DNA of 26,167 nt, from NCBI GenBank assembly GCA_016202845.1, contig JACQNW010000094.1, positions 1 through 26,167 on the forward strand, written 5' to 3'. The position numbers were made by a program, and so were the translations under genes. Shown here piece by piece: positions 7,051 through 25,972 of the stretch (within the stretch, counting starts at the first letter, position 1; every line of letters starts with the position of its first letter). This DNA comes from Candidatus Aenigmatarchaeota archaeon. GTDB taxonomy: Archaea > Aenigmatarchaeota > Aenigmatarchaeia > GW2011-AR5. The notes beneath the pieces are model-generated. The model was not told the DNA's origin and ran no database searches. It saw nothing but the letters and a program-made list of their open reading frames with translations.

Positions 7051-8300
7051 TGTCTTCTTAGTCTTGCTTCTATTTCTCTTCTTGGTCTGCTCAGTCTCAG
7101 TTCTTGCAATGATTTGTATCCGTCTTTTTGCATCCTAGAAGAAACATCCGACATAAGTTCTTTTGCAAGGCCCAATCCATAAAACGTGTAAGGCGTGTAG
7201 CCTTCAACTGCATCTGCGCCTGCAAGAAAAGTTTTGTAAGCGTCATCCCCGTCAAATATTCCGCCGGTTGCAAATATTATTATGTCTTCTCCAAAGTAAG
7301 CTTCTCTCAAGTCCTTGATTGCTCTCATTCTGTATGGCGCAAGAAATCTTCCGCTCTTTCCTGCAGAGCCATAGCCCCATTCTGGTATAGGCTTATCTTC
7401 TCGTGAATACCACCAGTTGAGTGACCAGTGTGGCCAATCCCATGTTTCAGAAACAACTTGTTCTTTTGGAACCATAAATGTGTTTACTACAACAAACCCG
7501 TCGCCTTTCCCGCTGATCCATGGATCTGCCAAAAAAAGCCAGTTTTCTTTTTGGTCTTCTTCGTATGGCCCCATCTTGACAAGAAGAAGCTTATCTCCGC
7601 AAAGGGCTCGCATTAGATACGCTGTGTCATAAAATATTGACGGTGTTCTCAGTTTCTTGAGGGCATCTGTATTTGGAGAAAACGGGTTCCAGACAAATCC
7701 ATCAACATATGGGTTGAGTGTGTCAATTAGTATTCTAAGTTCGTCATTATGCGCAAAGAAATTGCTTTCTTGTGGCAAACCGCAAATGCTTACATAAATT
7801 GTGGCAGTTCCGCCGGATTCTCTGTAGCTTTTTATTTTTCTTGCAAAATATTCCAATCCTTTGCTGGGAAAGCCCTGGGCATTATACATATTCTCGTCGC
7901 CCGCATTAACTGCAACACGCGGCTGTTTGTTGCCTACCCTTACTGGAACAATTACTGTTCCAGATTCTTGGAATCCAAATACGTATGAAAATTCGTCCAA
8001 CACATCTCCGTTCTTGTCCATTCCAGCTGCAGTTCCGAAAGGAACAAATTTTTTCCCTTTAATCTCAACGTCAAGTTCAGGAAACTGTCTGGGAAGATCG
8101 TGTCTTTGCAAAATTTCTCTGAATTCAGGCAGTTGCCTCATTACAGCCTCATGAACTTTTTCAGGATCGTATCGAATGACGCCTTCGGCGTCTGTGGCTC
8201 TTCCATAACGTCTGTAAAGCTCAGGTCTGACAACATTTCTGAAAAATCTTGGAGATCGCAGCGACAAGTCAAATCCAGCCCTTTCAATAACAGAAGCCAT
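7047..8300 (-). CDS. pyrD: Dihydroorotate dehydrogenase (class 2-like)
   Basis: DPEKVH, AAGMDKNG, SGTV, NPFSPNT (catalytic Ser position), LVKMGP, VVNT, GKSG and TGGI...AGADAV. Start taken at MASVIE (8300). Confidence 0.88.
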   Translation of the reverse strand: MASVIERAGFDLSLRSPRFFRNVVRPELYRRYGRATDAEGVIRYDPEKVHEAVMRQLPEFREILQRHDLPRQFPELDVEIKGKKFVPFGTAAGMDKNGDVLDEFSYVFGFQESGTVIVPVRVGNKQPRVAVNAGDENMYNAQGFPSKGLEYFARKIKSYRESGGTATIYVSICGLPQESNFFAHNDELRILIDTLNPYVDGFVWNPFSPNTDALKKLRTPSIFYDTAYLMRALCGDKLLLVKMGPYEEDQKENWLFLADPWISGKGDGFVVVNTFMVPKEQVVSETWDWPHWSLNWWYSREDKPIPEWGYGSAGKSGRFLAPYRMRAIKDLREAYFGEDIIIFATGGIFDGDDAYKTFLAGADAVEGYTPYTFYGLGLAKELMSDVSSRMQKDGYKSLQELRLSRPRREIEARLRRH

Positions 8301-15097: not shown

Positions 15098-15844
15098 TCA
15101 CTTTTTCTTTTTTGATGTACCGACGCCCTTAGGCGTCATAGACCTTGGTTCAAGCTGCAAGTCTCCAATAGTTCCAATATCCGTGCCGTCTAATAGATGC
15201 AGGCGCGCTGTTTTTTTGATCAGTCTTCTGGCTAAAGGTCCCAAAAGTTCGTCCTGGTTTATTATTGTTGCGCCGCACAGTTCGTTGAACGCAGGCATGA
15301 TAATGAGTTCTTTTCCTTTATACTTTCCTCTTAATTTTCCCAGGACCCATACAGGCTCTGTATAAACAGCCCTGACCTTGTCAATAAATTTTACATGCGG
15401 CTGGTTGTGGCCGATTATTATAGTTTTCTTTTTTGTCTGTATGTTCCTATGGCCATGTGTTAATGCATAGTCTCCTATAGTAAAACCCTCTGTGAGCTTT
15501 ACCCTTTCTGGCAGCGCTCTTTCAATGCCGCCGTCATGATTGCCCTTTACTGCAATTATCTTTTCAAATTCCAGCGCTGAAAAAAATCTTGGCAGCTCCC
15601 TTATTTCCTCGTAATTTGCAAACCCAATTCTGTTTTTTATATCGCCAAGTATCACTAGCGTGCTGGTTTTTGTCTTCTTTTTCAGCTTGTTGAGGCGCTT
15701 TGCAAGAATTTCTGCCTGTCTTGGCAGGGAAAATCCCTTTTCCCAGAGTTCGTGTGATTTCCCTAGATGAAGATCGGCTATGATCAGTGTTTTTCCTATT
15801 TTCAACGCAGGCTGGTTTCTTATAAATTGTACTTTGTTGCTCAT
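15098..15844 (-). CDS. Calcineurin-like metallophosphoesterase (Lhr-associated type)
   Basis: IADLHLG, LGD, KGNHD, THGH, GHNQP and MPAFN motifs. Lies upstream of lhr. Confidence 0.88.
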   Translation of the reverse strand: MSNKVQFIRNQPALKIGKTLIIADLHLGKSHELWEKGFSLPRQAEILAKRLNKLKKKTKTSTLVILGDIKNRIGFANYEEIRELPRFFSALEFEKIIAVKGNHDGGIERALPERVKLTEGFTIGDYALTHGHRNIQTKKKTIIIGHNQPHVKFIDKVRAVYTEPVWVLGKLRGKYKGKELIIMPAFNELCGATIINQDELLGPLARRLIKKTARLHLLDGTDIGTIGDLQLEPRSMTPKGVGTSKKKK

Positions 15845-21214: not shown

Positions 21215-21316
21215 ATGGCTCAGAAGCTACCCAATCGTCTACATCAGGAGCAGGTACCGACGCCAAAGGCGTCAATGCATGTCCTTTCAGACTGGGGTCG
21301 GTTTCGTCATCGCCAC
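21215..21316 (-). ncRNA. Box C/D guide sRNA
   Basis: Minus strand: GUGGC stem, 3-nt bulge, C box AUGACGA (21310..21304), guide, D' CUGA (21290..21287), hairpin insert, C' UGAUGU (21246..21241), guide, D CUGA (21223..21220), GCCAU closing the stem. Both guides are complementary to conserved 23S rRNA motifs. Confidence 0.8.
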
Positions 21317-22951: not shown

Positions 22952-23035
22952 AAGGCAGAAGGTCTGTAGAAATGACTCCAAAGATTTGGAGATTGTAATG
23001 CTTTTAATTTCTTAAGCTAATAAAACAACGAAGTA

Positions 23036-23262
23036 GAGTACCTCCGAAAGTGAAAACATATGGGTTTGCAATACATCCAGGATGGATTTTCATACTTTGG
23101 CTTTATAGCAAGCCAATGAAATAAGTTCTATATAACTTCATTGGTTGCTATACATCATAGATGCTTACACCTATGTGTGTCGGCATAGCCGACATGTGAA
23201 ACAAATAAATTATATCCTGTTTATTTATTTGGTTCATTATAACCCTGCTTTCGGAGGTACTC
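23036..23262. mobile_element. 227-bp MITE-like element with perfect 15-bp terminal inverted repeats
   Basis: GAGTACCTCCGAAAG (23036..23050) and CTTTCGGAGGTACTC (23248..23262). Internal hairpins at 23104..23152 and 23178..23194. No transposase and no clear target-site duplication. Confidence 0.7.
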
Positions 23263-23275
23263 AAATAAGCAATGT

Positions 23276-23505
23276 GCTGAGGTGGCAGAGCTTGGTCAAA
23301 GAGCCCCTTTCTCTTCTGCAGAAAGCAGCGCTTTCTGAGATCTCAGGCGAAGCCTGCAGATGAAAGAGAAGGGGCATGACTTAACGCGCAGGATTGCTAA
23401 AGCCCTTTGTGCATGTAAACGCACAAATCGCTTGCGGAAATAAGTTTCACTAAGCAAATATCCTGTTCCCGCAAGGGAGCGAGAGTTCAAATCTCTCCCT
23501 CAGCG
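23276..23505 (+). tRNA. tRNA-Ser(GCT) with two introns (21/22: 23300..23383; 37/38: 23400..23459)
   Basis: The exons give an 86-nt cloverleaf: GCTGAGG/CCTCAGC acceptor, CAGGA/TCCTG anticodon stem, long variable arm, GAGAG-TTCAAAT-CTCTC T arm and G73. BHB central helices are GGTC/GACT and TTGC/GCAA. Confidence 0.9.
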
Positions 23506-23509
23506 CTAT

Positions 23510-23742
23510 GGGTCGGTGGTCTAGTACCAATCCCTTTCTTAAAAGAAAGGTCTTGGTGAACTCCAAAGAAAAGGAGTTTTAGCATATTAAAAATATGCCA
23601 GAAAATGGCTATGAGTTTCAGTAACTAGCAAACGTTGCCCTTACAAACCGATGTCCTTACGACATCTAGCTAAATGAGGCGAAGGCCGGCGGTTCGAACG
23701 AGTGAAGCAAAAGCTTCTCTTCCGAAATTCCGCCCCGACCCA
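23510..23742 (+). tRNA. tRNA-Val(TAC) with four introns (~16/17: 23526..23604; 23/24: 23614..23631; 37/38: 23646..23676; 59/60: 23699..23728)
   Basis: Five exons (16+9+14+22+14 = 75 nt) form a complete cloverleaf with a GGGTCGG/CCGACCC acceptor. Introns 2 and 4 have clean BHBs; introns 1 and 3 have relaxed BHBs. Confidence 0.88.
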
Positions 23743-23743
23743 C

Positions 23744-23757
23744 TTTTAAGTTTTTTG
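23744..23757 (+). terminator. T-rich archaeal terminator after the Ser-Val tRNA pair
   Basis: TTTTAAGTTTTTTG immediately downstream of the discriminator base. Confidence 0.45.
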
Positions 23758-24165: not shown

Positions 24166-25242
24166 ATGACTCATGATAGAAGGGAATTTTTAAACACATT
24201 TGCGTCATTAGGCTTTGGAACAGCTTTGATAGGAGCAGAGTTATTGTTTCCAGACGAAGCTTACGCTTATAGAATGACGGATTCTGTCAGTCCGAAGAGA
24301 AGAAAAAGGTCAAACAGAAAAGATACGAAATTCATTGTTTTACATACAACAGAAGCAAATGGAAGTAGCTCCCTTAACAACCTTACACGAGACGGAAAGG
24401 CAAGCTATATGATTGATACAAACGGCAAAGTTTACAAGATTATGAATCCAGATCAGATTTCTATAGGTTGCGGAAGAAGCATGTGGGATGGCCGCAGAAA
24501 TTTAGATAATTGGGCTATTAACATAGAAGTGGTGGGAAGACATAATACACGGCCAACGGCAAGTCAGTATTCTAGCTTGAGAGATCTGGTGCAAGACTTG
24601 CAAAAAACGTACGATATATCTGACAGGAATGTTATGCCTCACTCTCAGGTTGCTTACGGCCGTCCAAATAAATGGCACAGAAGGTCGCATAGAGGAAGAA
24701 AAAGATGCGGCATGCTTTTTGCAACAGATTCAGTAAGAGAAAGACTTGGATTATCTTCAAAACAAAGGGATGATCCTGATGTAGAAGAAGGAAGGTTAAT
24801 GGTTGCTGATCCTTATTTGCGCCAGGTGATATACGGAAGAGCAGTGCCTGAAAGAGAACCTGATGCTGTGAAAGAAGAAGTGGATGAAGATAAACATATT
24901 TTACGAATAGTTGAAAGAGGCCAAACTGTCTGGAGATATGCGGGAGATGAATTTGATGCAGAAACAACCATTTACATGCTCCCGGATGGAAGAGTAAGAA
25001 CCGGAGAAGAATTGCAAAAAGCAGGTTATGACTTTAGTCGTGTGCCGCCAGGTGTCCAAATGGCTGTTGGATATGTTTATGGTGGTCATGTCCACCCTGG
25101 TAGATCAGCATACGAGATAGCAGGCAGAGATTGGAATAATCCTTCCACACTTTACAGGCTGCCGGATAGGAGAATAATTACTGGCGACGATTTGGACTCT
25201 AGAGCTATACCAGATGGAACTCTTGTTCTGTTTAGAAAATAA
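24166..25242 (+). CDS. Tat-exported N-acetylmuramoyl-L-alanine amidase (Amidase_2) with two C-terminal repeats
   Basis: RREFL twin-arginine signal. IVLHTTE, YMIDTNG, INIEVVG, VMPHSQV and RKRC give the Zn ligands His/His/Cys and the catalytic Glu. Confidence 0.82.
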   Translation: MTHDRREFLNTFASLGFGTALIGAELLFPDEAYAYRMTDSVSPKRRKRSNRKDTKFIVLHTTEANGSSSLNNLTRDGKASYMIDTNGKVYKIMNPDQISIGCGRSMWDGRRNLDNWAINIEVVGRHNTRPTASQYSSLRDLVQDLQKTYDISDRNVMPHSQVAYGRPNKWHRRSHRGRKRCGMLFATDSVRERLGLSSKQRDDPDVEEGRLMVADPYLRQVIYGRAVPEREPDAVKEEVDEDKHILRIVERGQTVWRYAGDEFDAETTIYMLPDGRVRTGEELQKAGYDFSRVPPGVQMAVGYVYGGHVHPGRSAYEIAGRDWNNPSTLYRLPDRRIITGDDLDSRAIPDGTLVLFRK

Positions 25243-25740: not shown

Positions 25741-25781
25741 TCTTAAGCATAACATTATTCAGCTCTGTGGTCTAGAATAAT

Positions 25782-25972
25782 GCTCCAAACAAGTTATCAA
25801 TAATTTGTTGGCAAAGTTCGTCTAGCCCGGTCAGTGAACGGCGATCAAACTTGTTTTTATCGTCTCAACTGTTAGGATTTCGGCCTTTCGATAACCAGAT
25901 TGAAAGATCTGAGAGCTCTTTGCTCGTTGAAGAAGCAAGCCGACGGCACGGGTTCAAATCCCGTACGGAGCA
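25782..25972 (+). tRNA. tRNA-Glu(TTC) with three introns (5/6: 25787..25815; 20b/21: 25834..25873; 37/38: 25891..25937)
   Basis: Exons of 5+18+17+35 = 75 nt, with a perfect GCTCCGT/ACGGAGC acceptor after splicing. BHB central helices are TGCT/GGCA, CGGT/ACTG and CTTT/GAAG, each flanked by 3-nt bulges. Confidence 0.92.

Follow-up and report, generated by a model that had tools for sequence, protein, structure and literature searches.

The three largest introns of a tandem of tRNA-Ser and tRNA-Val genes in a tiny, uncultured member of the Aenigmatarchaeota are, as judged by sequence comparison, largely built of small hairpin repeats that occur genome-wide. We suggest, with a probability of roughly two in three, that both genes give rise to functional tRNAs and that repeat-built introns, which EndA (the splicing endonuclease) tolerates, drive a fast turnover of tRNA introns. 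The tandem is located in a stretch of 26,167 nucleotides (the window) from a fragmented metagenome-assembled DPANN genome of 950 kb and 77% completeness (G000). The analysis also covered 43 relatives, among them a genome of the same genus (G001) and a near-complete genome of the same family (G003). An initial annotation of the window had described the structured introns; what appears to be the genome-wide repeat nature of their structured parts had escaped it.

The features of the locus are listed in Table 1. Gene boundaries, spacer, T tract and the six introns are as annotated initially and were recovered from the sequence, by BHB-aware dynamic programming and by ARAGORN on the spliced products; likewise, the census described below gives nine introns at seven positions when tRNA-Glu is included. 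Neither ARAGORN nor Rfam reports anything for the unspliced window. Excision of the introns yields canonical tRNAs, and each is the sole copy found of its anticodon. On exon evidence alone the 3′ edge of the Val 16/17 intron may slide by up to 2 nt, 79 nt being the length with the best helix. For tRNA-Ser we rejected a reading as Ser(GGA) and also nested introns within the 37/38 intron; read as GCT and with a single intron of 60 nt, the gene shows a perfect central helix and agrees with G001. The two genes are likely transcribed as one precursor, because the spacer is too short to hold a promoter and because tRNA-Val alone is followed by a T tract, with runs at 23744-47 and 23751-56. A scan for sigma-70 promoters, a model not suited to archaea, gave nothing above shuffled sequences. 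Ser-GCT followed by Val-TAC at a distance of 2, 3, 4 and 7 nt is also present in G007, G014, G020 and G042, which belong to four other genera. In G010 and G003 the two genes lie apart from each other, and in G001 they are divergent.

Table 1. Features of the Ser-Val tandem and its surroundings (positions in the window)
Feature	Position	Strand	Basis or remark
High-copy dispersed repeat, other family	23034..23262	.	self-blast depth 23
tRNA-Ser(GCT), three exons	23276..23505	+	BHB-aware DP; ARAGORN on spliced product
Ser intron 21/22, 84 nt	23300..23383	+	central helix 4/4
Ser intron 37/38, 60 nt, of the family E type, without intron-side helix (h')	23400..23459	+	central helix 4/4
Ser-Val spacer, 4 nt	23506..23509	+	sequence
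tRNA-Val(TAC), five exons	23510..23742	+	BHB-aware DP; ARAGORN on spliced product
Val intron 16/17, 79 nt, repeat family A over the first 51 nt, three hairpins	23526..23604	+	central helix 3/4
Val intron 23/24, 18 nt, strict BHB	23614..23631	+	central helix 4/4 and h'
Val intron 37/38, 31 nt, relaxed BHB	23646..23676	+	central helix 3/4
Val intron 59/60, 30 nt, strict BHB	23699..23728	+	central helix 4/4, h and h'
T-rich tract, probably terminating transcription of the tandem	23744..23756	+	sequence only
tRNA-Glu(TTC)	25782..25972	+	introns 5/6 (25787-25815), 20b/21 (25834-25873), 37/38 (25891-25937)

Some observations concern the surroundings of the genes. The dispersed repeat upstream of the tandem stops 13 nt before tRNA-Ser and lies over the likely TATA region; it is composite, and its family is apparently absent from the introns. 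A protein with an Amidase_2 (peptidoglycan amidase) domain is encoded between the tRNA genes (24166-25242). Upstream of tRNA-Glu, at a distance of 6 nt, the first 15 nt of the gene recur as a near copy (25762-25775) that might form pairs with the 3′ strand of tRNA-Glu. In G003 (C2:739025) there is a 16-nt copy of the 5′ end of tRNA-Met with a repeat element between copy and gene.

tRNA genes were searched with a profile search of our own, which allows introns anywhere and scores the stems as well as the BHB central helix. Accepted genes score between 45 and 114, the best hit in the reversed genome scores 19. The calls were manually curated in G000. We found 32 complete tRNA genes and a truncated one in G000. 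The tRNA genes are not mostly intron-free: 31 of the 32 complete genes (97%) carry introns, 58 in total or 1.8 per gene, and 23 genes have two or more. The introns are 14-141 nt long with a median of 34 nt. ARAGORN recognises all 32 spliced products, each with the expected anticodon, whereas Rfam at E 0.001 gives six tRNA matches in G000; most tRNA genes in such genomes escape standard tools. Uncurated counts, in which a few anticodons are misassigned, are 27 genes with 52 introns for G001 and 41 genes with 79 introns for G003, that is about 1.9 introns per gene in both. Together with the differences within the genus (see below) these numbers support the massive intron gain proposed initially. 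Across the order the intron load is uneven, with 6 to 38 good Rfam tRNA matches per genome. In 16 genomes the number of intact Rfam tRNA matches correlates with the number of repeat matches with a rho of -0.68, a value that is partly circular and stems from kin which are not independent, and which we left out of the evidence for this reason. As side results, a tRNA-Ile with UAU anticodon is present in G000 (C131), G001 (L137) and G003 (C2:431502), as reported for ARMAN-2, and a candidate tRNA-Pro(AGG), unusual for archaea, in G003, L336 and L339.

A BHB motif has a central helix of 4 bp and is cut in two 3-nt bulges. By their sequence the six introns of the tandem appear to be archaeal BHB introns of ordinary type, and on their own they make an extreme gene of a known kind. 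Several relaxed motifs had been noted before; in the tandem, one central pair is missing at the Val 16/17 and 37/38 junctions. Genome-wide, 53 of the 58 introns have three or more of the four pairs in the central helix and 26 have all four, compared with 12.8 and 2.3 after swapping of the 3′ ends among the introns; since the dynamic programming scores the central helix, non-canonical boundaries are partly circular in this count. At position 37/38 the boundary is set by the anticodon, independent of the BHB score, and here 20 of 23 introns have at least three pairs against a shuffle mean of 4.4 (maximum 12 in 5000). A full central helix together with the intron-side helix is present in only 14 of the 58 introns, which makes the suggested need for broad-specificity splicing a reasonable one. 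The 37/38 intron of tRNA-Arg(CCT) (C97:6217-6473, plus strand), 107 nt long, has no central helix when taken as one unit; a nested 20-nt intron with strict BHB at its 3′ splice site would restore the helix, suggesting ordered splicing.

Two of the large introns are predicted to be highly structured. The folds of Ser 21/22 and Val 16/17 beat all of 200 shuffles (z -4.2 and -5.5). Fold prediction returns the Val intron as three consecutive hairpins, as described initially. For Ser 21/22 the long stem with a multiway junction holds, but the junction is three-way with two hairpins and not four-helical: the CTGAG/CTCAG helix, which was thought to be part of it, occurs neither in the MFE nor in the centroid structure, has a loop of 2 nt and clashes with the other two hairpins.

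Which enzyme could cut these junctions? An EndA gene is not found in G000 by Pfam or tblastn and is not assembled in G001 either. In the relatives one gene directly follows EndA; in G000 this syntenic neighbour is cut by the end of contig C96, so that the EndA gene probably lies in a gap between contigs. A single-unit alpha EndA of about 200 aa (frames of 190-240 aa) is encoded in 22 of 24 other genomes of the family (f1), and in five genomes which are at least 90% complete the EndA N-terminal domain is matched once each. With a profile of 73 EndA homologs no beta paralog is detected in the near-complete G003 (next best E 0.11); the same protein of the G003 search detects the N. equitans beta subunit at 1.7e-5. 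In the relatives searched, G000 itself being without an assembled EndA, neither a separate beta subunit nor a fused three-unit (epsilon2) enzyme was found. The heteromeric or epsilon2 EndA expected by the initial annotation finds no support in the relatives, where one alpha-type enzyme with an L3-like loop is encoded.

PDB entries 3IEY and 1A79 are the N. equitans alpha subunit and the M. jannaschii EndA, respectively. The EndA of the relatives has a basic insert of 6-7 residues between the catalytic Tyr and His which aligns without gaps to N. equitans alpha (3IEY_A), and the Tyr-His spacing is 15-16 versus 9 in M. jannaschii. Going by PMC5829648, this insert would be the L3 loop. In DPANN, Kaneta 2018 linked alpha4+L3 EndA to disrupted tRNAs (PMC5829648). 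The EndA of the relatives resembles this type (PMC5829648; PDB 3IEY, 1A79) in its single unit of about 200 aa, the Tyr-His insert and the association with disrupted tRNAs. However, a beta partner as in N. equitans was not found, and the position of the catalytic Lys156 is Ala in 70 of the 73 sequences (Ser in two). A single-subunit EndA without the textbook lysine may be what handles relaxed junctions. The enzyme type looks permissive rather than causal, as the intron load varies widely among genomes which share it; an Asgard preprint arrives at the same view (bioRxiv 10.64898/2026.10.13.758758). In family f7 we found a second EndA-like gene of 398-485 aa (G030 C2:64588, G036 C16:11658 and G040 C50:15353), and G030 is the genome with the most intact Rfam tRNA matches, 38.

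We suggest that the tandem is processed as follows. The Ser-Val precursor would be separated into its two tRNAs by the enzymes that usually trim 5′ and 3′ ends. An alpha4-type EndA with L3-like loop would cut at all six BHB junctions, strict or relaxed, and the exons would be joined by RtcB, which is encoded in G000. The lack of an assembled EndA in G000 and the Ala at the catalytic Lys position in the relatives speak against this scheme. One could also object that insertions have turned the Ser and Val genes into decaying pseudogenes, or that the tandem is an artefact of assembly: the genome is a fragmented MAG, the central helix has a mismatch at two of the six junctions and the assembly holds no EndA. 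This is hardly credible in our view, because excision restores canonical tRNAs which are the sole copies found of their anticodons, the BHB enrichment is far above the null, other genomes show the same pattern and the gene after EndA is cut at the end of C96.

G000 is rich in dispersed hairpin repeats. HMMs were trained exclusively on copies outside tRNA genes and have no matches in the reversed genome. Family A has 40 non-tRNA copies, which are often antisense and abut a start codon, and family E/B has 23, often directly after a stop codon; 11 copies belong to family C and 16, mostly within ORFs, to family D. The HMMs match 14 of the 58 introns and 12 of the 26 introns of at least 44 nt, compared with 0-1 for reversed introns, and many introns of G001 and G003 are matched as well. 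In G003, matches to sequence that lies outside the called tRNA genes were obtained for 38 of 79 introns (null 0), where some of the matched sequences are tRNA genes that the census missed.

Within the tandem the clearest case is Val 16/17. Its first 51 nt match the family A HMM, built from free copies only, with E 7.5e-8, and 48 of the 51 positions are identical to a free copy of the same genome (C57:12620) versus 43 in the intron at the same position in G007; a gapped alignment to a free copy in G041 likewise gives 48. Ser 37/38 matches the family E HMM from free copies weakly (E 0.006). The start of Ser 21/22 resembles E-type introns (88% over 25 nt to the introns of Gly-TCC and Ser-CGA), its match to the family E profile being below significance at E 0.46. 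The inner hairpin of the same intron (about 23315-23346) is a second dispersed module with a free copy at C13:6541 in G000, and it is present in 19 of 43 relatives, often in several copies. For the three short Val introns there is mostly no repeat explanation: the HMMs do not match short introns such as Val 23/24 and 59/60, and for Val 37/38 blast gives a 22-nt near copy outside tRNA genes (C33:9120). Apart from the tandem, family D palindromes are found in ORFs of the window at 8174-8195 and 15121-15143, with a further copy at 21256-21276. Within these ORFs, a dihydroorotate dehydrogenase-like one and one of 248 aa, the palindromes recall in-frame palindromic elements. In G001 the 37/38 intron of tRNA-Trp (L208:5592-5951) is composed of several repeat modules and is 263 nt long, about twice the maximum of 129 nt given in PMC4090602.

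Intron gain, loss and replacement are fast within one genus. The mature tRNAs of G000 and G001 are mostly 90-100% identical, but intron positions and sequences differ, so that in most orthologous pairs the introns are unlike in one or the other. This comparison is at the same time a motif-free check of the G000 junctions. Mature Ser-GCT is 99% identical between the two genomes and is broken at the same two junctions; at 21/22 G001 has a different intron, at 37/38 a homologous one of 61 nt. Val-TAC of G001 (mature identity 93%) is uninterrupted at all four Val intron positions. An A-type intron at Val 16/17 is common to three genera and may be old, a source rather than a product of the free copies. 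The Val intron of G014 has palindromic modules nested inside the loop of the A hairpin.

The strong folds could be taken to mean that the structured introns are selected as stable, functional circular RNAs and are released by a heteromeric or epsilon2 EndA. Indeed, covariation is seen in the outer 5-bp stem of family A (129 of 135 pairs kept, one G-T), and excised archaeal tRNA introns circularise, although most of the circles are described as relatively unstable (PMC3326292). Nevertheless we hold this to be very unlikely. The introns are not conserved even within the genus, there is no Rfam match at E 1, and the fold belongs to a repeat that is present in both orientations; near-exclusive Watson-Crick covariation of the A stem is as expected for a structure kept on either strand. 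Moreover, the relatives have a single alpha EndA, and G030 with its extra EndA-like gene retains the most intact tRNA matches. Circular introns would be expected by default with RtcB present, and nothing seems to suggest a function for them. A box C/D guide encoded in the introns, as in the tRNA-Trp type, was dismissed on the same Rfam and conservation results.

We prefer to regard the folds of the large introns as copies of small palindromic repeats and not as a designed RNA module. Since EndA reads only the junction, tRNA introns could be a tolerated home for repeats. Repeat-derived sequence would enter at the 5′ splice site and move between tRNA genes and positions, introns would grow by nested insertion of further modules, and at the DNA level there would be exchange between the repeats in introns and free copies. 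Such traffic would drive the fast gain, loss and replacement of introns. We directly observe the shared sequence, its position at the splice site, the turnover and one inverted copy: the 35/36 intron of Arg-TCT is the reverse complement of family E, and therefore a step at the DNA level must be involved. Only a quarter of the introns match the repeat HMMs.

The free copies follow a rule of their own. CAT precedes 14 of 17 free A copies and 0 of 10 intron copies, the background being about 4%. The CAT flank accounts for the position of free A copies beside start codons and tRNA 3′ ends. As the intron copies lack it, a single insertion rule does not fit both, and there is probably a second route, copying between tRNA genes. 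Strict BHB motifs flank 1 of 32, 1 of 23 and 2 of 11 free copies compared with 8 of 300 random sites. We therefore consider it unlikely that free repeats are mRNA introns of the cbf5 type. In a MITE-type check for terminal inverted repeats and target-site duplication, the 3′ ends of the elements are not exactly delimited and the hairpins look internal.

A less likely alternative is that repeats only insert into, or gene-convert, existing short introns and thus enlarge but do not create them, the gain itself occurring by copying as in the Thermoproteales. The 3′ ends of the introns are site-specific and the 5′ parts are shared, as in Gly-TCC 37/38 and Ser-CGA 15/16, which are 96% identical over 49 nt and then unrelated. 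The same junction can hold different introns in G000 and G001, the 16/17 introns of tRNA-Met and tRNA-Thr are 90% identical over 86 nt, and many short introns are without a repeat. However, random insertion would scatter the start of the repeat, whereas the lead motif lies within 8 nt of the 5′ splice site in 65 of the 69 long introns which carry it (three genomes). One might go further and propose that the palindromic elements create BHB introns de novo, their 5′ end becoming the new 5′ splice site, with rescue by a lysine-less alpha4 EndA and with the tRNA genes as a reservoir that reseeds the genome. This is conceivable, but we would not expect it to be the case. If true, it would amount to a direct and ongoing mobile-element origin of protein-spliced tRNA introns.

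Conversely, the introns could be the source: excised circles would reverse-splice and be reverse-transcribed, and would seed other tRNA genes and the free copies. The 5′ ends of the repeats coincide with the 5′ splice site, A-type introns are common to several genera, RtcB is present, and G000 (C136:13971-15152, minus strand) as well as G001 encode a reverse transcriptase, 393 aa in G000 and apparently DGR-like by its motif, for which template and variable repeats were not located. But a reverse transcriptase was not found in the repeat-rich genomes G003, G012 and G015, one intron copy is inverted, the A copies at start codons are mostly antisense to the gene, and the free copies far outnumber the intron copies and have no strict BHB flanks. 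We thus judge this route to be rather improbable. For the exchange at the DNA level which we favour, a mobilising enzyme is something we infer, as is the direction of transfer. A transposase bearing the repeat ends was not found in G000 and 43 relatives. Y1 transposase genes are present in 19 of the 43 relatives and absent from G000; as movers of the repeats they were discarded, being parts of ordinary IS200/IS605 elements with ends unlike the repeats.

REP/BIME, MITE and IS200/IS605-derived elements are, like the repeats of G000, short multi-copy hairpins which lie between genes and near starts or stops, in tandem or nested. As in the IS200/IS605-type or REP elements, family A of G000 has a covarying hairpin and a fixed 5′ flank, CAT, that recalls HUH-type targeting; unlike REP, MITE and IS200, the repeats of G000 double as spliceable tRNA introns, and no cognate transposase was found adjacent to them.

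The intron load of G000 is extreme, though it has a precedent in the Asgard archaea. The older literature gives three introns per tRNA gene as the archaeal maximum (PMC3239211). In Asgard genomes 92-95% of the tRNA genes are interrupted (PMC11291895), with 2.2 introns per tRNA gene and up to five in one (bioRxiv 10.64898/2026.10.13.758758). Thus, both groups share more than 90% interrupted genes, about two introns per gene and D-arm introns that standard tools miss, and the four introns of tRNA-Val are no record. The Asgard introns are shorter, however, with a median of 22-23 nt versus 34 nt in G000, a DPANN genome. A general route of intron arrival did not emerge from the Asgard study, which gives 1.5% cross-isotype families and no link to mobile elements (bioRxiv 10.64898/2026.10.13.758758); in G000, by comparison, introns have sequence in common both among themselves and with the free repeats.

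In the Thermoproteales, as summarised in PMC4090602 (Fujishima 2010), near-identical introns occur in different tRNAs and positions, and gain at the DNA level by a mechanism described as unknown has been proposed. Similar introns in different tRNA genes and positions are what we find in G000, too. According to the same summary the Thermoproteales copies are described among tRNA genes and the EndA is (alpha-beta)2, whereas in G000 the shared sequence is also a free repeat throughout the genome and the EndA of its relatives is single-subunit. The DPANN archaeon ARMAN-2 (Ca. Micrarchaeum) likewise has introns at non-canonical positions including 59/60 and relaxed motifs, but 56% of its tRNA genes are disrupted and its EndA is of the epsilon2 type (PMC3239211), compared with 97% in G000 and a single alpha unit in the relatives. 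In literature on Aenigmarchaeota tRNA introns and on DPANN REP elements, most subscription papers lying outside the search, we found no description of a link between repeats and introns. What sets G000 apart from the systems above is a free, genome-wide donor pool for introns, in a lineage with single-subunit EndA.

The question of how introns come into archaeal tRNA genes is open; copying, mobile elements and reverse transcription were tested for it in the Asgard census of 2026. In the lineage described here donors lie in the same genome, intron turnover is seen inside a single genus and there is a candidate target rule, which makes the question testable. Our findings point to one specific way in which tRNA genes of archaea may acquire introns.
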